A stretch of DNA of 36,522 bases, taken from UHGV virus genome UHGV-0118448; one strand, 5' to 3'. Under the pieces are notes generated by a model. The model did no database searches. It had not been told where the DNA came from and worked only from the letters and a program-made list of their open reading frames with translations. A program made the position numbers and the translations under genes. This document shows, piece after piece, positions 1 to 36,522 of this stretch. The number at the start of each line of letters is the position of its first letter. Position 1 is the first letter of the stretch. Origin of the DNA: a virus.

Positions 1-49
1 TGACGGGTAAAAAGTGGATAAAATAATTTTACCCACCGGATTTTTACCC

Positions 50-1207
50 ATGCTCACCGTTAAGCAGATTGAAGCAGCAAAGCCGAAAGAAAAACCATAC
101 CGCCTACTCGATGGTAATGGCCTGTACCTTTATGTCCCTGTATCAGGGAAAAAGGTATGGCAGCTTCGCTACAAGATTGACGGTAAGGAGAAAATCCTGA
201 CCGTCGGAAAATATCCGCTTATGACTTTGCAGGAGGCAAGGGATAAAGCATGGACCGCGAGGAAAGACATCTCGGTTGGCATCGATCCGGTAAAGGCGAA
301 AAAGGCTTCGTCTAACAACAATTCCTTTAGTGCGATTTACAAGGAATGGTACGAGCACAAGAAGCAAGTATGGTCAGTAGGGTATGCGACTGAACTTGCA
401 AAAATGTTTGATGACGACATTTTACCTATCATCGGCGGCCTTGAAATTCAGGATATTGAGCCGATGCAACTGTTGGAAGTAATCCGCAGATTTGAAGATC
501 GCGGTGCAATGGAGCGAGCCAACAAAGCCCGCAGAAGATGCGGCGAGGTTTTCCGTTACGCTATTGTCACCGGAAGGGCTAAATATAACCCGGCACCTGA
601 CCTTGCAGACGCCATGAAAGGATACCGCAAGAAAAACTTCCCATTTTTACCTGCCGACCAGATCCCGGCATTCAACAAAGCACTTGCAACATTTTCAGGA
701 AGTATCGTATCGCTCATTGCGACCAAAGTTTTACGTTATACAGCCCTAAGAACGAAAGAGCTTCGTTCCATGCTATGGAAGAACGTCGATTTTGAAAACA
801 GGATTATCACCATCGACGCCAGTGTGATGAAGGGACGCAAAATTCATGTGGTCCCGATGTCAGACCAGGTGGTTGAACTTCTCACTACGCTAAGTTCAAT
901 CACCAAACCAGTCTCAGAGTTTGTTTTTGCCGGGCGCAACGATAAGAAGAAGCCAATCTGCGAGAACGCGGTATTGCTTGTGATCAAACAAATCGGCTAT
1001 GAAGGTCTGGAAAGCGGTCACGGATTCAGGCATGAATTCAGCACGATTATGAACGAGCACGAATGGCCTGCTGACGCTATTGAAGTGCAACTGGCACATG
1101 CCAACGGCGGATCTGTGCGCGGTATTTACAACCATGCTCAGTATCTCGATAAGCGCAGAGAAATGATGCAGTGGTGGGCGGATTGGATTGATGAAAAGGT
1201 GGAGTGA
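50..1207 (+). CDS. int: Tyrosine integrase (P4/IntS-like, 385 aa from ATG 50)
   Basis: N-terminus MLTVKQIEAAKPKEKPYRLLDGNGLYLYV typical of arm-binding domain of P4-type integrases; C-terminal HGFRHEF box and conserved Tyr region (GIYNHAQY). ORF track starts at GTG 14; ATG 50 matches the family N-terminus. Confidence 0.9.
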   Translation: MLTVKQIEAAKPKEKPYRLLDGNGLYLYVPVSGKKVWQLRYKIDGKEKILTVGKYPLMTLQEARDKAWTARKDISVGIDPVKAKKASSNNNSFSAIYKEWYEHKKQVWSVGYATELAKMFDDDILPIIGGLEIQDIEPMQLLEVIRRFEDRGAMERANKARRRCGEVFRYAIVTGRAKYNPAPDLADAMKGYRKKNFPFLPADQIPAFNKALATFSGSIVSLIATKVLRYTALRTKELRSMLWKNVDFENRIITIDASVMKGRKIHVVPMSDQVVELLTTLSSITKPVSEFVFAGRNDKKKPICENAVLLVIKQIGYEGLESGHGFRHEFSTIMNEHEWPADAIEVQLAHANGGSVRGIYNHAQYLDKRREMMQWWADWIDEKVE

Positions 1208-1234
1208 TCCACCTTAACCACAATTGAATAGCAC

Positions 1235-1267
1235 AAAGCCTTGCAATTCAGTGCAAAGCTTTTTGTG
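1235..1267 (+). terminator. Imperfect hairpin with U-tract downstream of int (possible bidirectional terminator between convergent int and tailspike)
   Basis: aaagccttgca / tgcaaagcttt inverted repeat (one mismatch) ending in ttttt, located between the stops of two convergent genes. Confidence 0.4.
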
Positions 1268-1430
1268 TCTCAGTTTTGCCCCATCAACCACAGCAAGTCA
1301 TCGATCGATTAAGATTAAGTAAAGCTATCTGGAAACATATCTTTTTCTGTGTTCTTATTATTATGTAAATATAACCCCACTAATGTGAGGTTATTCTACA
1401 GAATATGTTAATTACCCAACCATCGAAATA

Positions 1431-3335
1431 TCATGCGGATGGCGCATAAATTCCGTTAAAGTTAATTGAAATATCGTAATGTTGCATGTTGGCAGGAGTA
1501 ATCAGTAAATCTCTAAGTGTAACAACCACCCAGGGATTATCAGTGTTTGCTTTATCACAATAAACTCTTGTCGTTGTGGTTGACCCGGCATATACAGATA
1601 CATTTGCCGCAGATAATGTTCCGTCACTAGTGGCGTAATATGTTGCTGATGGCATTGTTGCAGTGCGGCCATGCGTTATTTCCACGATGCCAGCACTCAC
1701 CACAGAAACAGAGATATTATTTCTAATCCACTCTGGGACACCAGAGCCTGAAGGCGGTCTTCCATAACGAATGACTCCTGTTTTTGTATTAACAATAAAA
1801 GAGACGTCGGCATACACCGTGATTTTTAAAGTGAATGCATTGCCAACACGAAGTGGCTCTGCGTAGGCCCTGGCACCTTCTATACCCATAGTGCGATTGA
1901 CATATGCTGTAGCATAAAACCAGTTTTCTGCATTGTCTGCAATTTCTACAGAAAAATATTCCCCATCAGCAGAAACAACTAATTTATGGGCATTGGAAAT
2001 TTTCCATTCACTGTTTACTTCTTTAGATAAAAGAACCCATTTATCGTTATCATTGCTGTATTTAATAGTACCAGCGACTAATTTTGATCTTGTCCAAGGT
2101 GGGGCAAAATTTGAATATTGCGCTAAATCGGTTGAGGTTTTATTACTCGCCCCTCCTTTGACTATAGACCATAACCCCCTAGCACCTTCTCGCCCCATCG
2201 TATTGTAACCACGTTGTGTATAATGGACGCCTCCATCGTAAGTGCCAATATTGCCATCACCTTTTAAAAATGAAGGACAACCATCAAATACTGTCACAGC
2301 ATCAGTTTTGTTATTACAAACCCATCTTTGTGCATTTTGAATAGCAGCCCATGATTCTTCCGTTCGGTTCCCAGGGCAACCAACGGTAAAATTACCAAAT
2401 AAATCAAAATTAATATCGGCTTTCAGGTCATCTATCAAGGCTATAAAGCGGTCTCTATAAGAATTGTATGTGGTTCCTGATGACATATCCGTTTCACCCT
2501 GATGGAACAATACATACGTTTTACCGACAGGCAGACCTGCGGCAACCATCGCCTTTTTAGCTGATACCACGGCATTCACCAACAGCGAGTAGTATGTTGT
2601 CCCTTTTGATAGATGTGCTATCGACATTGCGCCACGGCCACAATGTATCTCCACTGAACCGCGCCCACTAAGGCGATACCATTCATTCTCAAATTCTCCC
2701 CAGGCATGTCCTGATGATGCAACTCCTGAAGAACTAACCACATTCTGAATTATTGGCTTTATAGTTCCATCTTTAAAATCGTACATTAACGATTTAGGAA
2801 GAGGATCTGGAAAACCTGATGTATCACCTGATAAAATAGCCTCGCCTGCGCTATTTGATTGCCCATACGTAACAAACACATCATATACATTTGGCGACTC
2901 AAGGTATTCTGTTGCAATAACATTACTTGCTATTTTTGATGCGGTTACTCCAGATATCATTACTGTACTATTAGTTTCTGACAACCTGCTTTCTAATTGA
3001 TCTGGATCATACTTCAATACGTTTGGAAAATAGAATTGCTGCGAACCATACGCATCATAAACAGCCATAGAATGGCCTTGCACAGTTACGAATTTGGCAA
3101 TCTGTCCGTTATATACAGGGTAACCAGCAGCGTTAATGATGATTGGTTGAGAAACAGGAACGTGAGAGCCATCTTCGTTCTCCACATAAGCCTGAATCTG
3201 GTTTTCAGGATTTACAGGGTCAGTATCAATTTTACCGATATAAATTTTGCCATTAGCTACGGCTTTAAAGGAACGAGCCATAGTGAAGAGTTGCGAAGGC
3301 ATTCCAATTACAACATTTGGGGTGATTTCCGTCAT
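1431..3335 (-). CDS. Tailspike protein: P22 gp9-type head-binding N-terminus fused to a carbohydrate-esterase-like (GQSN / HQGETD) receptor-binding region
   Basis: From internal Met: [43 protein letters not shown] matches the P22 tailspike head-binding domain; AGGA Shine-Dalgarno 8 nt upstream of ATG at 3335; downstream motifs [14 protein letters not shown] and VLFHQGETD. Gene is AT-rich relative to neighbours. Confidence 0.85.
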
Positions 3336-3526
3336 GGGCGCAATCCTATTAGATTGACTCGATAAAGAAGAGAATGGAGTTAATGCTACAAATGACGCTA
3401 TTGATTTGAAAAATGATCTTCTGTTCATTTAAGACACTCTTTAAGCATGACATTTGGTAGTAATGTAAGAAAAAATTACAATCAACTCCATAGCTATTTA
3501 ATTTTTAAAAGTGATTCACACCTGCA

Positions 3527-5920
3527 TTACCCTGACAACACATCAGACTTAGCACCCTGAGTCAGGGCGTTAATGGCCTTTTGCGCCTGCTGCATGGCTT
3601 TCTCAAATGCTGTTGACCCGCGTGGGGTATTTGCCATTCGGAGCATTGCATTTCTGAATGGTTCGCTCTCATAGGCGCGCGTAAGAAGTCCGTAGCTTAC
3701 TGCTGCGCCAGTTGTCGCCGGGTTCATTGCCGTCCCATACCCAATAATGAACGGGATAGTTTGCTGCCCTGTGGGTGTTGTTACTGCCGCTTTTGCAGCC
3801 TGCTGCGTGGATTGCAGGTAGTTTTTTAATCCTTTCAGATAAGCGGCTTCCTGACCTTTAAATGTGATGCCAGTCTGGTTTTGCAGGATGTTAAGCTGTC
3901 GAAGGAACTGGTCAGGGGAGCCACCTGATTTCTCCATCGCCTTTCCAATGATGCCATTGCGCATTTGCGCCCTGCCAACACGACCAACTGAGTTATACAG
4001 CGTCTTAATTTCCGATTTGTTCTTGCTGAATAGCATGTTGTTGACAACTTCCGGCGTCAGGTCGCCTTTCATGAGAACATTCTTCAGCCTGGTATTCTTT
4101 AGTTTCGCCGCTTCGTCAGCGTAGACGGCATTGGCCTGCTGATATTTACGGAGAGTATCGTTGCCAAGATTCTGACCAATGGCACCATTGATATCGTCGG
4201 TCATTGCCTTGTAAACGCGCTGAATGGCAGCATCGGAACGGTTTGGTAACACTGGTCGCTCCCCCTTCACGTCCATTCTGAACTGGCTGCGCAGATCGCT
4301 TAATTGCTTCAAATCCAGATTTACCGGACCATCAGGACCAGCATTGCGAACAAGCTCATCACGATAGGACTGAAGTTTTGAAATAGTCTCGTTATCAGCA
4401 ACCTTACCAAGCTTCTGCAGGTTAGATATTTCTGTATCAATCTGCTGAATTGCTCTTGCAGGCTGAATGTTTATTCCTGCCATAGCATTCTGAACCTGCT
4501 CAAGACGGTTCCCTGCAGCACGACGAATTCCTGATGTTTTCGCTTTAAGGCTGTCAATAACAACAGCTGGATCATACTCACCGAATTTATCAGCAAATCT
4601 CTGCACCAACTGGCTTCTCGCTTCCTGTTGCGTTGCTCTCATTCCGCTTGTGCCAGCCAGGGGGATATTTTCCGCTGTCGTCTGCGCCATTTTTCCGACG
4701 CGGGAAGTGGGTTGTAACAGGTCTGTGGTGTGCAGAGGAACTCCTTCACGTTCTGCAAATCTGATAGCCTGTTGCGCTTCTGGTGCTATCGAACCACGAA
4801 CACCACGATAAGCAGCACCTAATCCACGTCCGGCAGCGTTAATAGCACCGCCAGCCAGCACACCAACGCCTAAATCGGTGGCGAGTGCTTCCGCATCATC
4901 TTTCGCACTGTTTGCAGCAAGTGATCCAACTGCGTTTTCTGCGAGAAGGCGAGTTGCCCCCTGAGCAATTCGACCAGCAAGTGTTGGTGCCTGTGCTGCC
5001 GCTCTCTCAACGCCAGCAGGAGTGAGGTAAGGCAATGCTTCAGCAAATACCCTTCCCTCTGTCGTTTGTGGAGTCAGCGCGCCTTGCTGAAGGCCAAAGT
5101 CCTGCTCTAATCCCTGCGTTGTTACTCGTGGTGCTGGTTGATATGTACCATCGCCAATGCCGAGTTTACCGCCAGCCCAAGCCGCCGCGCTTGTTACAGC
5201 ATCAGTGAGTTCAGCAGGTATGTTCGCTACGTTGATTCCTGCCTGTAGTAAGCCGCGCCCGGTTTCAGCAAGTCCATTACCAAGGTCAGACATTATTCCG
5301 CCTTGCTGCTGAACAGGTTTCGGTGCGACAGAACTTACGGGTTGAGGTGGCTGCTGACTGGCTGCCTGCTGCTCAATCTGAGCAAATGGATTATTTGGGT
5401 CTGACTGCACGCCTGATGCCGATACTTGTTCGGATGACTGTGCTTCCAGTTGTGCAAACGGGTTGTTAGGGTCTTGCTGAGGATGTACCTTTGCAGAGGT
5501 GGCGCGCTGTTCGACTGTTGAGTCTGTCACCGGGTCACCCGCCCATTGAGCAAAGCGATCATCAACGTAACCGCGGCCTTCAGGTCCTGGCGTATATTCA
5601 CCACGCTTTGCCTTCATAACGTTGCCGGGACCGTCGTGATAAGCCTGAAGAGCGTCACGCCAGTTACCAAACTGCTGGTACATCTTTGCCAGATAGCGCG
5701 CGCCAGCGTCAGCCTGATATTCGGGGTTTTGCATTTGCTCATCGGTATAACCCATATCACGCCATGTCCCAGGCATGACCTGAGTCAATCCTACAGCCCC
5801 GGCGGAGCTTACTGCGGCAGGGTTGTAAGAAGACTCCTTGGCACCCAGTGCAGTCATCAACCCTTCTGGCACACCGTAACGTGCGCCAGCCTGCTCTAAC
5901 AAATCACGGTAATTAGCCAT
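3527..5920 (-). CDS. Ejection (internal virion) protein, gp16 position, with N-terminal lytic transglycosylase-like domain
   Basis: Last gene of the 7-20-16 ejection-protein block by synteny; N-terminus contains GLTQVMPGTW and surrounding SLT-like motifs; 797 aa, Ala/Gln-rich low-complexity middle. Confidence 0.75.
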   Translation of the reverse strand: MANYRDLLEQAGARYGVPEGLMTALGAKESSYNPAAVSSAGAVGLTQVMPGTWRDMGYTDEQMQNPEYQADAGARYLAKMYQQFGNWRDALQAYHDGPGNVMKAKRGEYTPGPEGRGYVDDRFAQWAGDPVTDSTVEQRATSAKVHPQQDPNNPFAQLEAQSSEQVSASGVQSDPNNPFAQIEQQAASQQPPQPVSSVAPKPVQQQGGIMSDLGNGLAETGRGLLQAGINVANIPAELTDAVTSAAAWAGGKLGIGDGTYQPAPRVTTQGLEQDFGLQQGALTPQTTEGRVFAEALPYLTPAGVERAAAQAPTLAGRIAQGATRLLAENAVGSLAANSAKDDAEALATDLGVGVLAGGAINAAGRGLGAAYRGVRGSIAPEAQQAIRFAEREGVPLHTTDLLQPTSRVGKMAQTTAENIPLAGTSGMRATQQEARSQLVQRFADKFGEYDPAVVIDSLKAKTSGIRRAAGNRLEQVQNAMAGINIQPARAIQQIDTEISNLQKLGKVADNETISKLQSYRDELVRNAGPDGPVNLDLKQLSDLRSQFRMDVKGERPVLPNRSDAAIQRVYKAMTDDINGAIGQNLGNDTLRKYQQANAVYADEAAKLKNTRLKNVLMKGDLTPEVVNNMLFSKNKSEIKTLYNSVGRVGRAQMRNGIIGKAMEKSGGSPDQFLRQLNILQNQTGITFKGQEAAYLKGLKNYLQSTQQAAKAAVTTPTGQQTIPFIIGYGTAMNPATTGAAVSYGLLTRAYESEPFRNAMLRMANTPRGSTAFEKAMQQAQKAINALTQGAKSDVLSG

Positions 5921-7252
5921 TTACTGCCCCAAAGATGGAAGATATCCGTAGCGATTAATGAAGTCGATTGACAGCTCGGGGTGTTGCTTCAGGTAATCTA
6001 TAGAAGCCTGAGGCGCTTCCACTCGCTTGATACCGTTTTGCTGAACGTACTTACCAACCGCCTCATTACGCTTCTGGTTGAGCGTGTTCAGGATGACGCC
6101 AGCGTTGCGACGAAAGGACTCCTCGCTCTGCGAGTTCTGCAGCGAACCAACAGCCTGGTCGAGCTTTTTGCCCTCGGCATCAGAAAGTGCGCCCATGCCT
6201 CGCATGGCCTGAACCGCTGTCAGGTATGCTTGGGATTTAAAGGTATCAAGTCGTGCCTGAGTGTCTGCAGCCTGTGAGCCTGGAACGTTGGGGATTACTC
6301 CACGTAAGCCTGTAATGCTCTTAAGTGAAGGAGAACTAACGATATCGTTCAGAGTGAACATGCTGGTTGTGAGGGTGTTGATGCCGTCTTTGTAGCCATC
6401 ATTTAGCGCTTGCTGCTTCTGCTGCAACTGCTGGTTGTTGGCTGCTATGCGGCTCTGTATTTCCTGGCGCTTCAGGTCGTTAGTTTCTGCTGATAGCATC
6501 CGGTCAAGGCGCTTATTTTCGTTGTTAATGCGGTTTGTTTCTGCGTCTAGATTAATGCGCTGCTGACCTAAATTCGCCTGGATATCTTGTCCGCGCATTG
6601 TGATTGCCTGATTCCGAGCGGCGGTTTGCGAATCCAGATCCTGACCGCGCATGGTAACCTGGCGACCCTGCATTTTATCCTGTAGGTCAAAGTATTTTTC
6701 GGGCCCGAGACTGTTCATCCCCAGGTGATCGACAAATTCGCCGAACTGCCGCGGGTTCTGTTGGTACATCTGAGCGACGTCCTGAGGATTAACGCCAACA
6801 CGAGCTAACTCACCGGCGTTGTTTTGCAGCCATGATTGCATTGCTTCTGGAGACGATGACGCAAGGCGTGCGCCAGCCGCTAAGGTGCCGATAGAATTAC
6901 GCTGGTCTTCATCAATGAACCCCATGCCTTTACGGACGGATTCAATCTGGTCTGGATATTGAGTAGCCAACTGACGCAAAGCACCGCGATCACCAGACGC
7001 ATAAGCATTAGCGTACGCCTGCTGAAATTCTTTCTGCCGCTGAGCCTGCTTTTCCTGCTGAAACACCCCTGCAATGCCTGAAAGGCCTTGCAAAGCAGTA
7101 AGCCCAACATTGTTAGCGCCTGAACGCTCAATATCATTGTTCTGCCTGATAAGCTGAAGCGTATTGCCGATGTCATTTACGCTCGGAGCGTTTGAGTTGA
7201 CGCCGCCGATACCAGCCAACAATCCGCCATTTGATCCTTGCCAAGTAGCCAT
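5921..7252 (-). CDS. Ejection protein (P22 gp20 position)
   Basis: Position between gp7-like and gp16-like genes; Gln/Asn-rich, coiled-coil-like composition typical of ejection proteins. Confidence 0.65.
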   Translation of the reverse strand: MATWQGSNGGLLAGIGGVNSNAPSVNDIGNTLQLIRQNNDIERSGANNVGLTALQGLSGIAGVFQQEKQAQRQKEFQQAYANAYASGDRGALRQLATQYPDQIESVRKGMGFIDEDQRNSIGTLAAGARLASSSPEAMQSWLQNNAGELARVGVNPQDVAQMYQQNPRQFGEFVDHLGMNSLGPEKYFDLQDKMQGRQVTMRGQDLDSQTAARNQAITMRGQDIQANLGQQRINLDAETNRINNENKRLDRMLSAETNDLKRQEIQSRIAANNQQLQQKQQALNDGYKDGINTLTTSMFTLNDIVSSPSLKSITGLRGVIPNVPGSQAADTQARLDTFKSQAYLTAVQAMRGMGALSDAEGKKLDQAVGSLQNSQSEESFRRNAGVILNTLNQKRNEAVGKYVQQNGIKRVEAPQASIDYLKQHPELSIDFINRYGYLPSLGQ

Positions 7253-7261
7253 GATTACCCC

Positions 7262-7954
7262 TTAAAACAACGAGCCAAGCAATCCGATACCAGCACCAAT
7301 GCCAGCGCCCCAAGGTGTTGATGTTCCCAAAAGGCTGGCAAGACCTGCACCGGCAATCGCACCAGACGTTCCGCCACTAATTGCTGTCTGAAGACTTGAT
7401 GGTTTGTTGGCATTAGCAGCGGCAAGAGCTGCGCTTTGCTGTGCAATGCTGCTCATGTTGTTGGCGTACGTCTGCCCGGCGTTTGCCTGACCTTGCAGAG
7501 CACCAAGCCCAACGTTTGCCAGATTGTTGTAATTGCTCATCTGGTTTGATAACCAAGACTGACCGAGAGTCGGCGCGATCGTAGCCAGTTGATTGCTTGT
7601 GGCTGTCGAACCAAGTCCTCCCGTAGCCTCCGCAGCAGCAAGACTCTGGTAACGAGCCTGACCTGCAAGGTCTTTATACTGCAGAGAGTTGTAATACTGA
7701 TTAAGTGCCTGCCCCTGACCTTCTAAACTGGAAAGGTTCTGAAGCTGGTTAACATACTGCTCCGCAAGAGGCGTGAACGGAGCAAGGTTTTTCATGATCG
7801 TCTGCCACTGCTGATTTTGCAGGTCTGCGGCATACTTCTGAGCTTCTGCTGCATACTTTGCGCTTTTATCAGAGCTACCACCTTTCCCGCCTTTTTCATG
7901 GCACCAAGGTTCCTCGCCGCGCAGTTTTCTGCCCAGCTTAAATGCATATAACAT
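7262..7954 (-). CDS. Ejection protein (P22 gp7-like)
   Basis: 230 aa, N-terminus MLYAFKLGRKLRGEEP and Gly/Ala-rich C-terminus as in P22 gp7; synteny. Confidence 0.75.
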   Translation of the reverse strand: MLYAFKLGRKLRGEEPWCHEKGGKGGSSDKSAKYAAEAQKYAADLQNQQWQTIMKNLAPFTPLAEQYVNQLQNLSSLEGQGQALNQYYNSLQYKDLAGQARYQSLAAAEATGGLGSTATSNQLATIAPTLGQSWLSNQMSNYNNLANVGLGALQGQANAGQTYANNMSSIAQQSAALAAANANKPSSLQTAISGGTSGAIAGAGLASLLGTSTPWGAGIGAGIGLLGSLF

Positions 7955-7956
7955 GG

Positions 7957-8412
7957 CTATCTCCCGTGATTCAGGAAGTCGATTAGTTCTTCGCGTGTGG
8001 CGCTGTAAAAAGTCACGTCATCCACGCCTTTGAAGTATTTCTTGATGGTTCCTACACGCTTAAGGCCAATCATTGCGCAGTACATCTGACCGTGGCGGAA
8101 TTTGCGTGCGGCGAACGATGTGACGCACTGAACGGTGGTGTTAGTCAGAATGTATCGCCAGAACGCCAGCCCGATTTCCTTGCTGAAGCCGCGAATCTCT
8201 GGCAGGTACATGGCGTGGCAATCGAATGTCAGCGGCTGAATCTCCTGATAGTAAACAATTCCGCCGAACTGACCGTGCACGTTCACCTCAAAGTAACGGC
8301 ATTCAGGTTTGTAGTCGTATCCATCGCCGTTGTTGCTCCCGGCGATAATGTCAGGGTGATTTCCGACTGCTTCTATCAGGTCGATGTTTCGCGTTGGTTT
8401 GAATGTAATCAT
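7957..8412 (-). CDS. Head completion / tail accessory protein (P22 gp14 position)
   Basis: Synteny between tail needle and ejection proteins; 151 aa. Confidence 0.55.
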   Translation of the reverse strand: MITFKPTRNIDLIEAVGNHPDIIAGSNNGDGYDYKPECRYFEVNVHGQFGGIVYYQEIQPLTFDCHAMYLPEIRGFSKEIGLAFWRYILTNTTVQCVTSFAARKFRHGQMYCAMIGLKRVGTIKKYFKGVDDVTFYSATREELIDFLNHGR

Positions 8413-9113
8413 CAGTCAATCAGCCCATGTAATCTAAGTGCCGTTTCAAGCGCCAGAATACGCTGCCGCGCCTGCTGCAAACCTGTAGCGAGAGCTGCGA
8501 CTTCGGATTGTGTGTACGTAGTGCCGACAGTGTATGACTGGTTAGCGTTGAATGAGCCAAGAAGTGGCGTACCTGTGGCTGCAGTCCATCCGGTATTTCT
8601 TGCTCCAACAACCTGAATTCCATCAACTGAATATGATGTTTTTACATCCAGCGGTGACGCAAGAGACTGCGATTCGGTTACGGTTTTCGATACGTAATCA
8701 CTCTTAATGCCAGAGACATCGTTTTCTACGTCATCCAACCTTTGGTCAACAGTGACCAGATGCGCCTGAATATCGATAACCTCATCCAGCAAGTAATCAA
8801 CATCGCTACGTAGTACGACTATCTTCCCTTCGGCGGTTGTTAACCTGACCTCAAGGAGATTTATCGCTTTTGTGTTTGCGGTGATTCTTGCATCGTGATC
8901 TGCCAGTTCGACGTCCTGTTCATCGTTTTTCACCTGAGCATCGTAAGCGCCCTGACCAGCCTGATTTGCCTTCCCGGCAATTGCGCCGACATCAGCCCCC
9001 TGATTAATGACATACAGCAGGTAAGACTGGCTGAATATATTGCGTGGAAGGATTGATGTATCGAGCCGCGTCGCCTGAACAATAACCGGTGTGTTGAGAT
9101 TCGAATCAGCCAT
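8412..9113 (-). CDS. Tail needle protein (P22 gp26-like)
   Basis: 233 aa; N-terminus [50 protein letters not shown] and C-terminus [21 protein letters not shown] match P22 gp26 pattern. Confidence 0.85.
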
Positions 9114-10531
9114 TACTCAATCCTTATCTGGCAGCCTGACAGAGTGACAGGTGACTTCGTGATAACGCGCAATTTGAAGCCGACATTTTTCCTGATGCGC
9201 CCGACTCGCTTCCACAAAACGCGTTTGTCGTAAACGAACGGTTCATTCTGCTCAATCATCTGCTCACGTCCGTAATTGATTCCGTCAGTGGTTGCAGAAA
9301 GGAACAGGCGGTCGGCGTACTGCGCAACGCCAGTTGACGATTCAACCTCAAGGTCGAACACTCTGGCGTTATCTGCTTTGAACAGCGGAGTAAACAGAAG
9401 ATGTTCCTGTTGCTTGTCGTACTGGCTGCTGATGTCGAATTGCAATTTCCCGGTCACGGACTCCAGCTTATCGCCGCACGTTATCTGATTTCCTTCGTAA
9501 ATGAAGTCAATAGCGCGGTACACATCGTCATATAAGCCTGTTTTCAGCACACACCATTGTGGGCCATTGGCGCTTGAAGATGCGTCGTACACGAGGACGT
9601 GGCGCGGAAGGTGGATAATCAGCAACTCATGAGCATCAAATCGCAGCGATTCCATTACACCATCAGCCAGTTCATTAGCAGTGTAGGAGCGTAGTATTTT
9701 CTCAATGCTCGCGCTGGCGATTGGTGACACCTGCCCGGAGCCGATGATGTATACAGACGGCGCACCTGTTGCCGGATTGCTGATGAACGCATAGGAATCA
9801 GCAAACGGCGTTTTGCAGTAAGTTCCGGCGATGCCTTTTTGCACCATCAGCGATGGCTGCGCGACATACAAAGCAGCACCAACGGTAGTTGCGCCTGTCA
9901 GGGAGAAATATTCAATCGTCGATGAACCAAAGCAGACGATGAAGTCTCGCCATGTACCTATGCCGATGATGCCGTCCGGCTGCGATTCTGCGCGATATTG
10001 TGCGCTGTAACGGTCAGGATGCGATTCGTCTTCAAGGTCAGTGATAAACCATGAATCAGTTCCGTCTTTTGACCACGCATAACGCCCACGTAAGCGCGTA
10101 ATGTCGCGAACTGAACCTAACTCGTACTGTGTGAATCCGCTGTCTGTAGGCCAGTTTGAGACGGTTTTAACCGTGCCATCATAGCGATACTCGACCAGTT
10201 GACCATTAACGCCTACCGCCTGTGATGTTCGACCATGCGCCATTGATACGCGACCACTTCCGGCAACATCACCAACCTCGCTTTCGCCCTTATACAGCTT
10301 GCCACCACACACGCGATAAACAGCATTCTGCGCCATGTTGTACTCGACGCCTCGCGATACGCCGTTCACATCAGAACGTTTGGCAATGCCCGGGAATGAG
10401 CGAAGATATCCGCTGCTGTTGAGGATTTCTTTGGGTGTAGCCAACATATTCACTGGTAGATAGTCGATATAGTCAGCGTTTCTAAAGTCTTTGCCGACAC
10501 CTTTCATAAGCGGAAGTTGCTGAATCGGCAT
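9113..10531 (-). CDS. Tail hub / head completion protein (P22 gp10-like)
   Basis: 472 aa, same length and position as P22 gp10; start codon overlaps upstream stop. Confidence 0.8.
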
Positions 10532-17863: not shown

Positions 17864-18106
17864 TCATGCTCCGGTAGTGAACAGGTCTAACGCTTCCTTC
17901 GATTTACGCACCGCTTCGATAGTGCGGGTCGTGATATCTGAATTAGCGCCGCCTGACTGGAAGTGAATTTTGAATAACTCAAGCTTCAGCTCGTCAGTGC
18001 CAATGAACTGAAATGCTTCTTCTGCGGCTGCGTTCTGGTTCATGACCAGTTTGTAAATCTCTAACTGGAATTTCTGTTCTTCAGTCATGGGAATAATCTC
18101 TGCCAT
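17864..18106 (-). CDS. Hypothetical protein (P22 ORF80 position, upstream of terS)
   Basis: 80-aa ORF with ACGGAG Shine-Dalgarno; synteny only. Confidence 0.45.
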   Translation of the reverse strand: MAEIIPMTEEQKFQLEIYKLVMNQNAAAEEAFQFIGTDELKLELFKIHFQSGGANSDITTRTIEAVRKSKEALDLFTTGA

Positions 18107-18333
18107 TGTTGGCTCCGTTTATCCGTTAAAAGGGATATCAGTTAAGTTATCCCGTGTAGGGTATAAGCCATTGTCGAGACCACTCATTGAATGGCCTCTG
18201 CAATAACCGATGTCTTTCCATCAGTCCGCCACCACAAAGAATCTTTTTTGCCATAAGGCTGGAGGTTCATCTTTCAGTGGCTGCCAGTGTTATTTCCCCA
18301 CTTACTGGCTTGGGTTGTTTCGCTGTACTGCCG

Positions 18334-29404: not shown

Positions 29405-29464
29405 TCAATCCAAAAAATTAATTACCTGAAAATTCAAGCAGGTAAACTCTCACATCAATTTTAT

Positions 29465-29506: not shown

Positions 29507-29546
29507 TTAAGCCATCAGCAGGACGCACTAACCACCATGAAGGTGA

Positions 29547-29577: not shown

Positions 29578-29734
29578 AGCATTCAAAGCAGAAGGCTTTG
29601 GTGTGTGTGATACGAAACGAAGCATTGGCCGGAAGTGCGAATCCGGATTAGCTGCCAATGTGCCATTGCGGGGTGTTTTCGTTCAGGACTACGACTCCCA
29701 CACACAACCAAAGCTAACTGACAGGAGAATCCAG

Positions 29735-30061: not shown

Positions 30062-30069
30062 GGTGAGAT

Positions 30070-30156
30070 ATGGAAGAAGAATTTGAAGAGTTCGAAGAGC
30101 ATCCTCAAGATGTGATGGAACAATACCAGGACTATCCGTATGACTACGACTATTGA
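30070..30156 (+). CDS. Possible 28-aa highly acidic peptide (MEEEFEEFEEHPQDVMEQYQDYPYDYDY)
   Basis: ATG 5 nt after AGGT; overlaps ral start by 17 nt; short, so coding status uncertain. Confidence 0.25.
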   Translation: MEEEFEEFEEHPQDVMEQYQDYPYDYDY

Positions 30157-30340
30157 TACAAATCAATGGTGTGGACAATTCAAACGATGCAATGGATGCA
30201 AGCTGCAATCGGAATGCATGGTTAAGCCTGAAGAAATGTTTCCTGTAATGGAAGATGGGAAATATGTCGATAAATGGGCAATACGAACGACGGCAATGAT
30301 TGCCAGAGAACTTGGTAAACAGAATAACAAGGCTGCCTGA
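30140..30340 (+). CDS. ral: Restriction alleviation protein Ral
   Basis: 66 aa MTTTIDTNQWCGQFKRCNGCKLQSECMVKPEEMFPVMEDGKYVDKW... essentially lambda Ral. Confidence 0.9.
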   Translation: MTTTIDTNQWCGQFKRCNGCKLQSECMVKPEEMFPVMEDGKYVDKWAIRTTAMIARELGKQNNKAA

Positions 30341-30379
30341 TGGTGGCCTTTATTTTTAGCATAAACAACAGAGGCTAAC

Positions 30380-30649
30380 ATGGAATTTAAAGGTACTAGG
30401 AAAAATTGGCGAGAAGCCAATTTTGCAGGCTTAATTTTATTTTCACACCCGGGAATGGCCCTATCCGGTAAAGAAACAGAAGAGGCCGTAGCAAATGGAA
30501 GGTTGGCTATGGCTGCACCGGATTTACTTGAAGCACTTCAGTTATTACTTAAGCAAGCCGAAAATAGAACAACGACAACATATCCAGAATGGTATGGAGC
30601 TGTTAATAAGGCTCGCGAAGCTATCAAAAAAGCCCTAGGTGATGAGTAA
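30380..30649 (+). CDS. Hypothetical protein (AT-rich insertion, first gene)
   Basis: 89 aa, GAGG Shine-Dalgarno; low-GC relative to flanks. Confidence 0.5.
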   Translation: MEFKGTRKNWREANFAGLILFSHPGMALSGKETEEAVANGRLAMAAPDLLEALQLLLKQAENRTTTTYPEWYGAVNKAREAIKKALGDE

Positions 30650-30807
30650 TGAATAAGAGATACATCGTTGAAGTTATAGAGCGAGAAACAAAAGAAGTAA
30701 TTAAACATTTCGAATTTGATAATTATAGAAAAGCTGACCGAGTAGAAGAAGGATTGTTGCGACAAAGTAATCTCGAAAAATTTGATGTTGTCATGCGATG
30801 CGAATAA
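30649..30807 (+). CDS. Hypothetical protein (AT-rich insertion, second gene; TAATG-coupled)
   Basis: Hand translation MNKRYIVEVIERETKEVIKHFEFDNYRKADRVEEGLLRQSNLEKFDVVMRCE; start overlaps upstream stop. Confidence 0.4.
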   Translation: MNKRYIVEVIERETKEVIKHFEFDNYRKADRVEEGLLRQSNLEKFDVVMRCE

Positions 30808-30900
30808 GCGCCTATAGCAGATTTACGAGTCTGCTATGTGAGCAATGTCGCTCGTAACTAAACAGGAGCCGACTTGTTCTGATTATTGGAAATCTTCTTC

Positions 30901-30926
30901 GCCCTCCAGTGTGAGGGCTTTTTTAT
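30901..30926 (+). terminator. Intrinsic terminator after AT-rich insertion
   Basis: gccctc-cagtgt-gagggc followed by tttttta. Confidence 0.7.
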
Positions 30927-30990
30927 ATGCATACCAATAACGCTTCACTTGAGGCGTTTTCGTTATGCAATCAAACAGAAGGAGCATCCT

Positions 30991-31161
30991 ATGCAACAGT
31001 TCGCTATTGCAGGGGCGGCATCGGTTCGCCCTTTCAACCCGATTTTATCGGTACAGCATTCACGAAAAAATATTTTAACCGGAGCAGACTTTAAACAACC
31101 AAGAATGAAAAGTTTGCTCGAAAAGCTTTGGGATATTTTGAAACAACAAGGCCGCCCATGA
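30991..31161 (+). CDS. cIII: CIII-like protease inhibitor (56 aa)
   Basis: MQQFAIAGA... N-terminus and amphipathic KSLLEKLWDILKQQG region parallel lambda CIII; AAGGAG Shine-Dalgarno. Confidence 0.7.
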   Translation: MQQFAIAGAASVRPFNPILSVQHSRKNILTGADFKQPRMKSLLEKLWDILKQQGRP

Positions 31162-31316
31162 GTTTTACAGATAACTGGTCAGACGAAGAATTCATTCGTC
31201 AGATGAAAGAATTAATCGGTAACGAAGGAGATATTCATGTCACTTGCAACCACAGTGAAGGAGAGCAAGTTACAGAGACGCATGTACACGCAGAAAGCTC
31301 TCTGGTATCGCCATAA
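31158..31316 (+). CDS. Small protein after cIII (Kil position)
   Basis: ATGA-coupled start MSFTDNWSDEEF...; position-based only. Confidence 0.35.
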   Translation: MSFTDNWSDEEFIRQMKELIGNEGDIHVTCNHSEGEQVTETHVHAESSLVSP

Positions 31317-31415
31317 TGGTGACCGCGAAGGAATGCGGGTATGCCTTAATTTGTCCCGAGTCGAAGTATTAAATCAGCGTTATTTCCTTGGGCCGTGTCC
31401 ATTCTGAGGTGAATT

Positions 31416-32123
31416 ATGGATTTGAATAAATTCGATGAGCCATTCAGCCACGAAGATATCGAATGGCGAATACAGCAAAGCGGTAAAACACGCGATGGCA
31501 AGGTGTGGGCTATGGTGCTGGCTTATGTCACGAACCGGGCAATCATGAAACGCCTGGATGATGTTTGCGGCAAAGCAGGATGGCGCAATGAATACCGCGA
31601 TATTCCCAACAACGGCGGAGTTGAATGCGGCATATCAATCAAGATTGATTCCGAATGGGTAACCAAATGGGATGCTGCTGAAAACACGCAGGTAGAAGCC
31701 GTCAAAGGTGGTCGTTCCGGTGCAATGAAGCGTGCTGCCGTTCAGTGGGGAATCGGTCGGTATCTGTATAACCTTGAGGAAGGTTTCGCACAAACATCTC
31801 TCGACAAAAAGCAGGGATGGCACAGGGCAAAACTCAAGGATGGAACAGGATTTTACTGGCTCCCTCCATCGCTGCCGGGCTGGGCAATCCCAGCATCAGA
31901 TAACAAACCATCACCAGAAAATACCAACCAGAAATCTCCATCGGTTGACTGCGAACAAATCCTGAAAGACTTCAGCGATTATGCAGCGACAGAAACTGAC
32001 AAGAAAAAACTCATCGAGCGTTATCAGCATGACTGGCAATTAATGGCTGGAAACGAGGAGGCGCAGGCTAAATGCGTTCAGGTAATGAACATCAGAGTTA
32101 ACGAGCTAAAACAGGCGGCATAA
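31416..32123 (+). CDS. Single-strand annealing protein: Rad52-like (Sak/DUF1071-type) N-terminus with Erf-type C-terminal tail
   Basis: N-terminal FSHEDIEWRIQQSGKTRDGKVWAMVLAYV; C-terminal FSDYAATETDKKKLIERYQHDWQLMAGNEEAQAKCVQVMNIRVNELKQAA matches the P22 Erf C-terminus as recalled. Confidence 0.75.
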   Translation: MDLNKFDEPFSHEDIEWRIQQSGKTRDGKVWAMVLAYVTNRAIMKRLDDVCGKAGWRNEYRDIPNNGGVECGISIKIDSEWVTKWDAAENTQVEAVKGGRSGAMKRAAVQWGIGRYLYNLEEGFAQTSLDKKQGWHRAKLKDGTGFYWLPPSLPGWAIPASDNKPSPENTNQKSPSVDCEQILKDFSDYAATETDKKKLIERYQHDWQLMAGNEEAQAKCVQVMNIRVNELKQAA

Positions 32124-32639
32124 ATGGCAAGCAGAGGCGTAAATAAGGTGATCATTATTGGTCGCCTTGGGCATGATCCAGAAATCAGATATTCACCATC
32201 AGGAACGGCATTTGCAAACCTTACAGTTGCTACGTCAGAACAATGGCGTGATAAGCAAACTGGAGAGCAAAAGGAGCAGACGGAGTGGCACCGCGTGGTA
32301 ATGAGCGGGAAACTGGCAGAAATTGCCAGCGAATATCTGCGAAAAGGCTCTGAGGTTTATCTTGAAGGAAAATTGCGGACAAGAAAATGGCAGGATCAAA
32401 GCGGACAGGATCGGTTCACTACCGAAGTCATAGTGGGCGTTGGTGGAACCATGCAAATGCTTGGTGGCAAGCAAGGAGGCAATGAACAGTCTTCACCTCA
32501 GCGAAATGACGGTCAGCAACAAAGACAACAACCTCAGCAGCAAGGGAATCACAGCGAACCACCTATGGATTTTGACGACGATATCCCCTTTGCACCAGTA
32601 ACTCTCCCTTTCCCTCGTCACGCTATTCACGCAATTTAA
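32124..32639 (+). CDS. ssb: Single-stranded DNA-binding protein with 15-aa extension after the DDDIPF tip
   Basis: OB-fold N-terminus [59 protein letters not shown]; Gly/Gln-rich linker; MDFDDDIPF followed by [15 protein letters not shown]. Confidence 0.9.
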
Positions 32640-32647
32640 GGACTTAC

Positions 32648-33196
32648 ATGAATCACTTGATGGTTGACCTTGAAACAATGGGCAACGGGCCATACGCGCC
32701 AGTTATTTCTGTTGGGGCGGTATTCTTTGACCCGAATACCGGAGAAACAGGAGAAGAGTTCTCGGTAAATATCTCGCTTGAGTCATCAATGCGATATCGG
32801 GCGCGTCCTGACGCTTCAACGATTTTATGGTGGCTGGAACAGAGTGAAGAAGCCAGAAAATCGCTAACCAGCAACACTCAAGAGCTTTCAACGGCTCTTT
32901 CATGGTTATCTGAATTCATTATAAAGAACGCCAACCACAAACTCGTTCAGGTTTGGGGGAATGGAGCATCATTTGACTGCGTTATTCTCCGCAACAGTTA
33001 TTCGCTGACAGGGCAGCCAGTTCCGTGGCAGTGGTGGAATGACCGCGACGTAAGAACAATCGTCGAACTTGGGAAGGTAATAGGATTCGATCCTAAGCGA
33101 GATATGCCATTCAAAGGAACTCGCCACAACGCGCTTGATGATGCCATCCACCAAGCCAAATACGTTTCAGCGATCTGGAAAAAGTTAGCTAAATAA
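32648..33196 (+). CDS. DnaQ-like (DEDDh) 3'-5' exonuclease
   Basis: MVDLETMGNGPYAPVISVGAVFFD exo I motif; C-terminal HNALDDA exo III-like motif. Confidence 0.75.
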   Translation: MNHLMVDLETMGNGPYAPVISVGAVFFDPNTGETGEEFSVNISLESSMRYRARPDASTILWWLEQSEEARKSLTSNTQELSTALSWLSEFIIKNANHKLVQVWGNGASFDCVILRNSYSLTGQPVPWQWWNDRDVRTIVELGKVIGFDPKRDMPFKGTRHNALDDAIHQAKYVSAIWKKLAK

Positions 33197-33212
33197 TCAA
33201 CAGGAGAAAACC

Positions 33213-33509
33213 ATGCCAGCGCCTCTGTATGGTGCGGATGACCCGCGCCGCTGTTCCGGCAATTCCGTATCGGAGGTGCTGGATAAATTCAGAAAAAACT
33301 ACGATCGAATAATGTCTCTACAACAGGAAACGAAAGAGGAAAAGGAATTTCGCCACTGTATATGGCTTGCAGAGAAAGAAGAACGAGAGCGAATTTACCA
33401 GACATCAATCCGACCATTCCGCAAAGCCACATATACCCACTTCCCTGAATATATCGACCCGCGCCTGCGTAATTACCGCTCACGCTATGGCGCTATCAGT
33501 AATGACTGA
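33213..33509 (+). CDS. Hypothetical protein
   Basis: 98-aa ORF with AGGAG Shine-Dalgarno in early-left operon. Confidence 0.5.
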   Translation: MPAPLYGADDPRRCSGNSVSEVLDKFRKNYDRIMSLQQETKEEKEFRHCIWLAEKEERERIYQTSIRPFRKATYTHFPEYIDPRLRNYRSRYGAISND

Positions 33510-33519
33510 GGAATTAACA

Positions 33520-33810
33520 ATGAAAACAATGAAGCTAAACATCGACCTCGGAAAATACGTTATTACCGGAACCAAACACGATCTGATTCTTAGCGAAAGA
33601 GGAATTATCAAAGAAGGCGAGAATGCAGGGAAAGAAACACTAAGCCGTATCGGTTATTACAGCAAGTTTGAGCATCTGGTTAAAGAGTTATGCAACCGTG
33701 AAATTCTGTTATCTCAGGCACGGACGCTACAGGATATTCAGCAGCATATCGAAGCTTTAGGTATGTCACTTAGCATGGCTATTGACCAGTTCGTGGAGAG
33801 TAAATCATGA
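33520..33810 (+). CDS. Hypothetical protein (start [11 protein letters not shown])
   Basis: GAGGA Shine-Dalgarno 8 nt upstream; in-frame with longer ORF-track call. Confidence 0.5.
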
Positions 33811-33974
33811 GAGGACTTGCATACAATCCCGGCATTCTTCCGGCAGAAATGATTATTCGCCAACGCGTAAAGCCAATGCCATCGAGAGAGGAATTACTTA
33901 AGAGAAATTCTTTTCCATCAGTGAATGAAAACAAATATCTGAATGCGATGTGGCGCAAAGGAGGCAGCCAGTGA
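33807..33974 (+). CDS. Hypothetical small protein (55 aa, ATGA-coupled)
   Basis: Hand translation [55 protein letters not shown]. Confidence 0.3.
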
Positions 33975-34615
33975 CTAACCGTTTTTACATGATGTGCTCG
34001 CGTGAAACTGTGGGCAATAACGCTTCATTCCATTGCCATAACGGCAATGGTTACAGTTCTGATATCGATCGCGCTCATGTTTACACGCTGGAAGAAGCCC
34101 AAAAAGCCTGGAATTGTGGGCGAGATATCGATCAGCCTGTTTGCGCTGATAGCGTGGATGCAATGGCAGTGTGGCACGTTGATTGCCAGTACATCCCTAC
34201 AGAAAGCCTGATTGAGTCAGATTGCACTGCGTATGTGGCCTACAAAAAAGGTAGCTGGAACGGCAACGATGTTTACTGGCTTCAACACGGTGGATTGCCA
34301 ACAGATGACTTCAGTAAAGCGACCATCTTTAGCGTCGCCAACAAAAACGAACCAGGAATAGTTTGGTTGCCATTTTCCATTGCTGATGCAGCAAAGCGCA
34401 GGACGTTCAATATCAATAACTTTAACCGCAGAACAATGGTTCAGGGCGCAGGTTTGGTCATGCCTGACTGGTTGAAAGAGCAGAACAGAAGAAAGAAGTC
34501 GCGAAGCGGGAAGGTGCGTTGGAATTGTCCGCATTGCGGAAAAATCTCCTGGCAGTACAGCCCATATGATTTTGAAGGCTGTAGTGATTACAACTGTGAA
34601 GGATGGCGAGAATGA
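33971..34615 (+). CDS. Cys-rich hypothetical protein with C-terminal zinc-ribbon-like CPHCG motif
   Basis: Probable GTG start after AGGAGG; multiple Cys/His pairs (CHNGNGY, CPHCGK, CEGW). Confidence 0.5.
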
Positions 34616-35208
34616 CAATTGACTATCAGGCACTGCGTGATGCGGCAGAAGCAATAAAAATAGCAGCCACACCACAAAAATTGCTGGCATTTCGTATGAA
34701 GGTCACACCTCAGGTTGTGCTGGCACTACTGGATGAACGGGAAAGGAACCAGCAATACATCAAATCCCGCGACCAGGAGAACGAGGAAATTGCGCTAACG
34801 GTAGGGAAGCTGCGCGTTGAGCTGGAAGGCAAAGACAGCAAAATAGCCAATCTTACCGCCGAACGCGATGCTCTTCGTGAAGGTGAGATGGGCGACGCTA
34901 GGCATAGCAACACACGGGCCGCAGCTGATATCTACTTCCAACTGGTCGAGGAGTGCGAAATTCCTGATGGCGGATCTCTGGTCGAGTACGTTGACGATAT
35001 GCGCGAGAAGCTGGAAGCCGCAGAGAAGCGCATTGCTGAGCTGGAGTTGCGGGAGGTTGTGCTTCCGCAATGCTATAGCATGTTGCATCGCGTCGATTTT
35101 GACGAGCCTTACCACACTGAAATGGTTTACAGGCAGCATCAGGTTCTTGAGGCACTGCACAACGCTGGAATAAACGTCACCGAAGCATGTAAAGGAGAGG
35201 CATCATGA
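34612..35208 (+). CDS. Ea22-like coiled-coil protein
   Basis: ATGA-coupled start [16 protein letters not shown]; heptad-rich middle; typical position of Ead/Ea22 genes. Confidence 0.5.
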   Translation: MTIDYQALRDAAEAIKIAATPQKLLAFRMKVTPQVVLALLDERERNQQYIKSRDQENEEIALTVGKLRVELEGKDSKIANLTAERDALREGEMGDARHSNTRAAADIYFQLVEECEIPDGGSLVEYVDDMREKLEAAEKRIAELELREVVLPQCYSMLHRVDFDEPYHTEMVYRQHQVLEALHNAGINVTEACKGEAS

Positions 35209-35864
35209 GCACTATCACAAGAGAATGGCTGCAGCAGGCTATCAACGATTATGAAAGCGTTCGTGATGAGCTTCCTTTCGGGCTTGATGATTACCAGGGG
35301 AATATCCTGGCTGCCCTGCGTATTGCACTGGCATCGCTGGAAGCAGAGCCTATTGGCGCATTCCACATTGCAGAACAGCAAGTTGACGGCACAAGTGACT
35401 ACATCAAGGATGGGGAATGGCCTATTGATAATGGGATTATTGAAGTCTACGCCGCTCCGCCAGTACCGGTAGTACCTGCTGCATTACCTGAGAACGACGA
35501 TGAGGATGGGCATGACATTGATTATCTTGAGCCATCTGAAGTTTACGCGCTTGGGCGAACAGCTGGCTGGAACGCCTGCCGCGCCGCCATGCTTCAGGGT
35601 AAATCCGAACAACCACAAAACGCACAACAAAATATTCCGGAAAATATTCCCGGTGGCAACTCTCCGGTAACTCCTGATGGTTGGATAAGCTGTAGTGATC
35701 GAATGCCAAACGAAGAAGATGTTTTGGTTTATTGCTCAGACACTAAAGAGCAGATGGTAGGGTTTCACAAAGGTAAAGGGTTATTTCAATTCTTTTACAT
35801 GAATGGTGTTGAGGGGGTATGTGAGCCGTCACACTGGATGCCGCTACCAGAGCCTCCACTTTGA
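35205..35864 (+). CDS. Hypothetical phage protein with DUF551-like C-terminus
   Basis: C-terminal DRMPNEEDVLVYCSD...FYMNGVEGVCEPSHWMPLPEPP resembles DUF551. Confidence 0.5.
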   Translation: MSTITREWLQQAINDYESVRDELPFGLDDYQGNILAALRIALASLEAEPIGAFHIAEQQVDGTSDYIKDGEWPIDNGIIEVYAAPPVPVVPAALPENDDEDGHDIDYLEPSEVYALGRTAGWNACRAAMLQGKSEQPQNAQQNIPENIPGGNSPVTPDGWISCSDRMPNEEDVLVYCSDTKEQMVGFHKGKGLFQFFYMNGVEGVCEPSHWMPLPEPPL

Positions 35865-35960
35865 AAGCGAAGCTTATACATATCTTTTACATCAGCAATC
35901 TATTGTTAATCTCCAATCAATGTTACGTTGTCATCTCACTCATGCTTTGGAGGTAGTGAT

Positions 35961-36140
35961 ATGTCTTGTCCAAAATGCGGTTCTGGAAATATTGCAAAAG
36001 AAAAAACAATGCGTGGATGGTCTGGAGATTATGTGTGCTGCGATTGCGGATACAACGACTCTAAAGACGCATTTGGAGAGCGTGGTAAAAACGAGTTTGT
36101 TAAAATTAATAAAGAAAGCGAAGGCAACGAAAAAAGCTAA
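35961..36140 (+). CDS. Small zinc-ribbon protein (start MSCPKCGSGN)
   Basis: GGAGG Shine-Dalgarno; CPKCG ... CCDCG motifs. Confidence 0.45.
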   Translation: MSCPKCGSGNIAKEKTMRGWSGDYVCCDCGYNDSKDAFGERGKNEFVKINKESEGNEKS

Positions 36141-36204
36141 TTTATTTATTCATATATGAAAACAATGTAACCAATATTCGAATTGAAGAACTGAAAGAAC
36201 ACCA

Positions 36205-36229
36205 AGCCGCCTGATGGCGGTTTTTTATT
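36205..36229 (+). terminator. Intrinsic terminator upstream of xis
   Basis: agccgcc-tgat-ggcgg followed by ttttttatt. Confidence 0.7.
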
Positions 36230-36271
36230 GCCTGATTTGCAGGTTCGATTCCCTATTCGGAGATAGCACTC

Positions 36272-36472
36272 ATGCAACACGAACTACAACCTGATTCACT
36301 GGTTGATTTGAAATTCATCATGGCTGATACTGGCTTCGGTAAGACCTTCATCTATGACCGGATTAAGTCCGGCGACCTGCCAAAAGCCAAAGTTATCCAC
36401 GGGCGAGCAAGATGGTTATATCGTGACCATTGTGAATTCAAAAATAAGCTCTTAAGCCGCGCCAATGGGTAA
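36272..36472 (+). CDS. xis: Excisionase / AlpA-family DNA-binding protein
   Basis: 66 aa, MADTGFGKTFIYDRIKSGDLPKAKVIHGRARW winged-helix pattern of AlpA/Xis family. Confidence 0.8.
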   Translation: MQHELQPDSLVDLKFIMADTGFGKTFIYDRIKSGDLPKAKVIHGRARWLYRDHCEFKNKLLSRANG

Positions 36473-36522
36473 AATAGCGGGTAAAATATTTTTCACATCT
36501 AAAAAACACCATTCCAATCAAT

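Follow-up and report, generated by a model that had tools for sequence, protein, structure and literature searches.

The attachment systems closest to the locus described here are those of KplE1 (CPS-53), a 10-kb defective remnant in E. coli K-12, and of the phages HK620 and Sf6 (Lederbergvirus), in which attP is situated between the gene of the recombination directionality factor (RDF) TorI, named hkaC in HK620 and gene 18 in Sf6, and int. According to PMC2951348, the attP core comprises 16 nt and the TorI sites are the motifs GTTCG, GATCG and GTCCG. The same paper gives TTGACA as the -35 box of the int promoter (PintS) and TAaAAa as its -10 box, overlapped by P'1, states for the P' sites only that all arm-type IntS sites carry TAAA, and describes no co-transcription of the RDF and int. 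The arrangement is different in P22, which has the order xis-int-attP-gtr-tailspike: xis overlaps int and is transcribed together with it, and the attP core follows int at a distance of 30 nt. Among P22-like phages, at least two different integration modules occur, with attP in different positions; gene order alone cannot place attP.

We analyzed the UHGV virus genome UHGV-0118448, a sequence of 36,522 nt (the window, i.e., the whole stretch of DNA studied). The recombination module at its ends is the already known and well-studied IntS/TorI attachment system of KplE1, HK620 and Sf6. The window itself is very probably the interior of a P22-like (Lederbergvirus) prophage that has a module of this type and is integrated at argW, the tRNA-Arg(CCU) gene. 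The correct label would then be an argW-integrated HK620/Sf6-like prophage with its att sites trimmed off, not a circular genome; beyond correct annotation, the significance is small.

Genes at the ends of the window

The window starts 49 nt before the ATG of int and stops 50 nt past the stop codon of xis. Both ORFs given in a preliminary description of this DNA, xis reading toward the right edge and int at the left edge, were confirmed, and no second integrase was found downstream of xis.

50..1207, + strand: intS, heterobivalent tyrosine integrase with an N-terminal arm-binding domain (Pfam; K-12 IntS)
1431..3335, - strand: tailspike, convergent with int; head-binding domain of P22 type, SASA esterase domain
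36272..36472, + strand: torI (HK620 hkaC, Sf6 gene 18), recombination directionality factor (K-12 TorI, PDB 1Z4H)

Int contains the Pfam domains Arm-DNA-bind_3, Phage_int_M and Phage_integrase and is identical to IntS of E. coli K-12 at 384 of 385 positions (99.7%), which makes it an IntS-type integrase. The 66-aa Xis had no match in the Pfam search; it is identical to K-12 TorI over its whole length (66/66) and matches PDB 1Z4H (E = 6.6e-43), as expected for a TorI-type winged-helix RDF. For the tailspike, the ORF covers 1431-3428 (665 aa) with the true start at 3335: the full 665-aa ORF gave no match in the look-up, and matches appeared once it was trimmed to this start. The Pfam search recognized Head_binding and SASA in it.

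GGRTAAAA repeats

The motif GGRTAAAA occurs seven times in the window, for 1.84 copies expected. All copies but one lie at most 56 nt from the window ends, i.e., within about 106 nt of 36,522. By an arithmetic estimate, the probability of such clustering is about 4e-15 under uniform placement, so it is not due to chance. The repeats noticed earlier at both ends were thus present and clustered, mostly at the positions first given; the second copy occupies 16-23, where 17-24 had been reported.

1..49, + strand: distal P' arm of attP (attL in the prophage), with four putative IntS arm-type repeats and the downstream half of PintS
5..12, + strand: putative arm-type repeat GGGTAAAA, P'1-like, overlapping the PintS -10 box
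16..23, + strand: putative arm-type repeat GGATAAAA
27..34, - strand: putative arm-type repeat GGGTAAAA, inverted
42..49, - strand: putative arm-type repeat GGGTAAAA, inverted, abutting the int ATG
6673-6680: stray GGRTAAAA copy
36449..36522, + strand: distal P arm of attP (attR in the prophage), beginning at the primer for the functional 135-bp attR substrate
36467..36474, + strand: putative arm-type repeat GGGTAAAA with the torI stop codon inside (HK620 annotation)
36479..36486, + strand: putative arm-type repeat GGGTAAAA (HK620 annotation)

Positions 1..49 are identical to KplE1 attL of K-12 and to the attP of HK620 and Sf6. The first 80 nt of the window agree exactly with K-12 attL, and its last ~120 nt differ from K-12 attR at a single position; these stretches include all six arm repeats. 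HK620 and Sf6 show 96-99% DNA identity at both ends, with their attP core and repeats annotated at equivalent positions; the HK620 repeat annotation corresponds to window 4-25, 25-50 and 36466-36488. TAAA-containing putative IntS arm-type repeats are found on both arms, as six GGRTAAAA copies that do not differ from those of K-12, HK620 and Sf6. The assignment of each 8-mer as arm-type is suggested by the TAAA of the P' sites, by the position of P'1 across the -10 box and by the HK620 annotation; for the two P-arm copies by torI, it would follow only from the repeats annotated in HK620 and from a motif identical to that of P'.

The 150 nt between the two ends

The preliminary description had taken the ends as contiguous, with the P22 order xis-int-attP-tailspike. 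Instead, the last and the first base of the window are separated by exactly 150 nt in each of the four related phage records checked (HK620, Sf6, HF4s and N7), and the annotated attP core of HK620 and Sf6 falls in this gap, between xis and int. In the missing segment, the 16-nt core CTGCAGGGGACACCAT is preceded by 23 nt of P arm and followed by 111 nt of P' arm, in which five TorI sites and the PintS -35 box are located. Unlike the window, the HK620 and Sf6 records have an intact attP, with the 150 nt present between the two stretches. The core was absent from the window, even when 3 mismatches were allowed, and no tRNA gene was found within it. The window thus lacks 111 + 16 nt on its left and 23 + 16 nt on its right, and the true element would extend 127 nt beyond the left end of the window and 39 nt beyond its right end, with about 36,672 bp of unique phage DNA.

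An identical copy integrated between argW and dsdC

The 693-kb metagenome scaffold_2 of ENA ERZ28581183 is 100% identical to window 1-9335 and 30205-36522, a comparison that covers 15.6 kb at the two ends of the window; in scaffold coordinates the matching element spans exactly 36,522 nt, the same as the window. Host genes, which the preliminary description had named as evidence that would refute its proposal, lie beyond both ends of this copy, argW, yfdC and mlaA on the left and dsdC, dsdX and dsdA on the right. We observed the 16-nt core, common to the 3' end of argW, at both prophage ends: at -127..-112, inside the tRNA-Arg(CCT) gene by yfdC, and at +24..+39, by dsdC. The five TorI motifs (GTTCG/GATCG/GTCCG) are all in the 111-nt left flank, outside the window, and the -35 box of PintS is located in the flank as well; like the six repeats, they are conserved with K-12 attL/attR and with the attP of HK620 and Sf6. 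The argW-core junction was present in all seven contigs that had the exact tailspike and enough flank. Integration, shown for scaffold_2, can presumably be carried over to the window given their sequence identity. On an argW integration, the left junction is expected to read ...TTGCAGGTTCGATTC-CTGCAGGGGACACCAT-TTATCAGTTCG... and the right junction ...CCCCTGCCGCGCCAAGTAGATGT-CTGCAGGGGACACCAT-CCTTGTG...

The copy therefore shares with KplE1 the 16-nt core, the argW/dsdC site, the five TorI motifs and the PintS boxes, which are found in its flanks. In contrast to the KplE1 remnant, the module here flanks an apparently full-length P22-like genome of ~36.7 kb with structural, lysis and replication genes. 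The genes downstream of int differ from those of HK620 and Sf6 (oac in Sf6; the tailspikes differ).

As an alternative source, a free phage or viral contig in which the 150-nt core region was lost or broken during assembly, for instance by graph branching where integrated and excised forms coexist, would fit the lack of host bases in the window. It would also fit the searches for the exact sequence: an exact-pattern scan of viral contigs and species-representative genome contigs with the int-tailspike spacer gave no match, and the complete E. coli genomes yielded only relatives at 92-99%. We nevertheless regard such an origin as highly unlikely: a break in the graph would be expected at the 16-nt repeat, but the window ends 111 and 23 nt away from the core, and the 693-kb scaffold contains this sequence integrated, identical and of equal span. 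In addition, the margins of 49 and 50 nt look like a cut made from gene coordinates.

Scarcely credible is an entire phage genome, circular or permuted, with its opening point between xis and int, abutting ends, attP between int and the tailspike, and the repeats as a shared xis/int control region. The window is indeed without host sequence, the gene directions at its ends fit a read-through from xis to int, and the gene order of P22 could be invoked. Against this, the relatives place 150 nt including the annotated core between the ends, host genes flank the identical copy on both sides, and the Int/Xis pair is IntS/TorI, not P22 Int/Xis. Furthermore, the int-tailspike spacer (1208-1430) has no att feature: it contains neither a GGRTAAAA copy nor the core, only a terminator, and attP was rejected there. 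In common with P22 and lambda, the locus belongs to a temperate lambdoid phage with a small RDF and a tyrosine integrase acting on sites of arm type and core type, and its tailspike lies near the integration module as in P22. Unlike in P22, attP lies between the RDF and int, and int is served by a separate promoter located in the P' arm, so that a P22/lambda-type xis-int-attP module, with the core downstream of int and xis adjoining or overlapping int, is not what we found.

The earlier proposal that the two ends form a single functional unit, in a P22-like genome of a temperate phage, and that the GGGTAAAA repeats are parts of one split site was upheld. Its explanation of the split as an opened circular record was not, the split being biological, through integration at the core. 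Nor do the repeats appear to be a single shared xis/int regulatory region: they are better assigned as Int arm-type recombination sites, which probably also autoregulate int.

The int promoter, its terminator and the proposed recombination mechanism

The order RDF - attP - int was obtained from the reconstructed attP, the alignment and the HK620 and Sf6 annotation, and it places the int promoter inside the P' arm, where attL overlaps PintS.

outside the window, 14-19 nt to its left: PintS -35 box TTGACA (per PMC2951348)
8-13: PintS -10 box TAAAAA (boxes per PMC2951348)
~19-20: PintS transcription start (per PMC2951348)
1231..1270, + strand: terminator-like hairpin and U-tract just after int (folding; HK620 terminator annotation)

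A promoter and terminator scan of 1-1500 did not call PintS, because its -35 box is outside the window, and did not call the bulged terminator after int. Folding of 1205-1285 gave z = -2.6, and HK620 annotates a terminator at the position equivalent to this hairpin.

Protein binding, promoter mapping and regulation are taken from the literature and would apply here by sequence identity. In the circular phage, the order would be torI, P arm, 16-nt core, P' arm with PintS, intS, terminator and tailspike. Integration at the core would split attP in two, giving attL (argW, core, TorI sites, PintS, P' repeats, intS) and attR (torI, P repeats, core, dsdC). As its ends lie 49 nt upstream of intS and 50 nt downstream of torI, the window would retain just the outer arm repeats. 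The N-terminal domain of IntS is predicted to bind the six GGRTAAAA repeats, which, together with the core sites and host bending proteins, would form the intasome for integration and excision. The -10 box of PintS shares bases with the repeat at 5-12, so that IntS may repress its own gene. TorI would bind the five GTTCG-type sites just outside the window, drive excision and also repress PintS. That the repeats are instead sites for the excisionase TorI has next to no probability: two copies directly follow torI, four precede int, and RDF sites are often tandem repeats, but TorI binding to GGRTAAAA was rejected on the TorI motifs published in PMC2951348, which are five in number (GTTCG/GATCG/GTCCG) and occupy the stretch from the core to the -35 box (here in the 111 nt outside the window), and TAAA belongs there to the P' IntS sites. 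The primers for functional attL and attR substrates (PMC3509656) exactly match window 50-73 (- strand) and 36449-36468 (+ strand), and the near-identity to the studied K-12 and HK620 substrates suggests IntS/TorI/IHF-dependent integration and excision activity.

The region upstream of torI

36204..36229, + strand: intrinsic-terminator-like hairpin (GCCGCC/GGCGGT and U-run)
36237..36252, + strand: 16-nt exact copy of argW tRNA positions 46-61 (T-arm)

The T-arm copy, 20 nt ahead of the start codon of torI, contains the TorI-site motif GTTCG; it was kept in every TorI module examined. It is rather doubtful that this copy is a functional element, e.g., a TorI operator autoregulating the torI promoter, or a relic of the insertion of a torI-P-arm cassette into a once longer tRNA-homology segment of attP.

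Genes and repeats at the ends of the window

The int, xis and tailspike genes and the end motifs listed in the preliminary description were all found in the sequence, and the motif coordinates held for all copies but one, the second, which lies at 16-23 and not at 17-24.

Features at the ends of the window
50-1207, + strand: tyrosine integrase (int) with an N-terminal arm-DNA-binding domain (ORF and domains)
36272-36472, + strand: xis/torI, 66 codons, directed at the right edge (ORF)
1431-3428, - strand: tailspike ORF, true start at 3335 (Head_binding and SASA domains)
5-12, 16-23, 27-34 (inverted), 42-49 (inverted), 36467-36474, 36479-36486: GGRTAAAA copies (motif count)

The GGRTAAAA motif occurs 7 times in the window for 1.84 expected. 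Six of these 7 copies fall inside about 106 nt of the 36,522 nt (probability of about 4e-15, by arithmetic), a clustering at the ends that cannot be due to chance. The margins of 49 nt ahead of the int ATG and 50 nt past the xis stop look like a cut set by gene coordinates.

The two ends are parts of one attP, separated by 150 nt

We compared each window end with phage records by megablast. Bases 1 and 36522 correspond to record positions 1256 and 1407 in HK620 and to 17987 and 18138 in Sf6, and the gap between the ends was constant at 150 nt in HK620, Sf6, HF4s and N7. The attP core is annotated within this gap (1368-1383 in HK620, 18099-18114 in Sf6), and the 16-nt core CTGCAGGGGACACCAT was not found in the window with 3 mismatches allowed. 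The ends had been proposed to be contiguous; in the phage records, 150 nt including the attP core intervene. The attP repeat regions of HK620 convert to window positions 4-25, 25-50 and 36466-36488, which are exactly the motifs first noticed at the ends. The repeats belong to a single attP. The initial interpretation is partly supported: the two ends are parts of one split site.

Integration at argW

The exact tailspike protein is encoded by many public contigs, among them ENA ERZ28581183 scaffold_2, a 693-kb metagenome scaffold. We observed 100% identity of scaffold_2 to window 1-9335 (locus L006) and 30205-36522 (locus L016), and its coordinates, 273511 down to 236990, cover exactly the window length of 36,522 nt. 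To the left of base 1 in scaffold_2, the phage P' arm continues for 111 nt up to the core, which is the 3' end of tRNA-Arg(CCT), argW; yfdC and mlaA come next. To the right of base 36522, 23 nt precede a second copy of the core, after which come dsdC, dsdX and dsdA, so that host genes are present past both ends. The core is the longest repeat common to both flanks. The argW-core junction was found at -127 in 7/7 contigs with this tailspike and sufficient flank, and related prophages in complete E. coli chromosomes show the same order, yfdC-argW-intS ... torI-dsdC. The proposal of one divided site stands, but what divided it is integration of the prophage at argW, with 150 nt trimmed away.

Variants of these junctions were also observed. 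The attL core of strain EC6622 (locus L003, NZ_CP096587.1, ~1374-1389) has one base different (CTGCAGGGGGCACCAT) within the argW 3' end. In two assemblies (L019 and L022; NCBI GCA_043235245.1 and GCA_026308105.1, ~6717-6800), the TorI-side junction core is 15 nt, CTGCAGGGGACACCA then G, and dsdC is replaced by genes for a LacY-type permease (LacY_symp) and a PfkB-type kinase, which changes the host surroundings on the right side of attR.

The module is IntS/TorI

Int is identical at 384/385 positions to IntS of the E. coli K-12 cryptic prophage KplE1/CPS-53, and the presumed Xis at 66/66 to TorI, its recombination directionality factor, also matching PDB 1Z4H. We rebuilt attP from the window ends and the scaffold_2 flanks. 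In an alignment of this site with K-12 attL/attR and the attP of HK620 and Sf6, all six GGRTAAAA repeats and five GTTCG/GTCCG/GATCG motifs are conserved, as are TTGACA, the core and the int start. The recombination system is a known one, the IntS/TorI module, which had been characterised before.

The KplE1 mechanism was transferred to the window from the literature by sequence identity. According to Panis et al. (PMC2951348), attL overlaps the intS promoter (-35 TTGACA, -10 TAaAAa), every P' IntS arm-type site contains TAAA, the P'1 site overlaps the -10 box, and the stretch from the core to the -35 box contains five TorI sites; intS is repressed by both IntS and TorI, and the RDF gene is transcribed separately from int. 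Mapped to the window, the -10 box occupies 8-13 within the 5-12 repeat, with the transcription start near 19-20, and the 111 + 16 nt immediately to the left contain the -35 box, all five TorI sites and the core. The attL and attR primers for functional substrates of 220 bp and 135 bp (Panis et al., 2012; PMC3509656) match exactly window 50-73 (-) and 36449-36468 (+); the window therefore carries the outer 73 and 74 nt of experimentally sufficient sites. Mapping of the published sites and primers makes the repeats predicted IntS arm-type sites of one attP, which integration has split into attL and attR. For the P' copies, this prediction follows PMC2951348; for the two P-arm copies, HK620 annotation and motif identity suggest it.

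Comparison with P22

In P22, the xis and int genes overlap and the attP core comes 30 nt after int, ahead of gtrABC and the tailspike, whereas in the window module attP lies between xis and int. Here, int and the tailspike are convergent. Their 223-nt spacer (1208-1430) contains a terminator-like hairpin where the HK620 record annotates a terminator, and motif and core searches found neither core nor arm repeat in it. The order xis-int-attP-tailspike suggested initially is thus right for P22 and inapplicable here. The remaining sequence is that of an ordinary Lederbergvirus, with IME10 as the nearest phage (97% identity over 86% of 24.6 kb).

Additional observations

An exact 16-nt copy of argW tRNA positions 46-61 (T-arm), TTGCAGGTTCGATTCC, lies at 36237-36252, 20 nt upstream of the torI ATG and directly past a terminator hairpin (chance expectation of about 0.001). 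In argW, the last of the 16 nt coincides with the first att core base. The copy and its 3' context are conserved in 10/10 TorI-carrying loci examined (K-12, HK620, Sf6 and others). The motif GTTCG of the TorI sites occurs within it, and in the HK620 record the stretch is labelled as a cII-activated promoter.

An ORF resembling hkaB / Sf6 gene 17 (36465-36522 and beyond) starts within the torI 3' end, spans both P-arm repeats and the core and enters the P' arm, for 46 codons in the rebuilt attP. It is cut by integration, the attR version continuing into host DNA, and is perhaps not a genuine gene.

Upstream of the tailspike start (MTEITPNVV, 3335), 31 open codons in frame (3336-3428, -) resemble a twin-arginine export signal, probably by chance or as a relic; window 3290-3560 had no megablast match within the phage collection. 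The tailspike has a SASA (sialate O-acetylesterase-type) domain in place of a glycosidase. No immI region (mnt/arc/ant), sieA or O-antigen-modification genes were found in 1208-5920, where a gp16-like DNA-transfer gene (3527-5920) directly adjoins the tailspike and the tailspike adjoins int. The genome, of about 36.7 kb, is short among P22-like phages.
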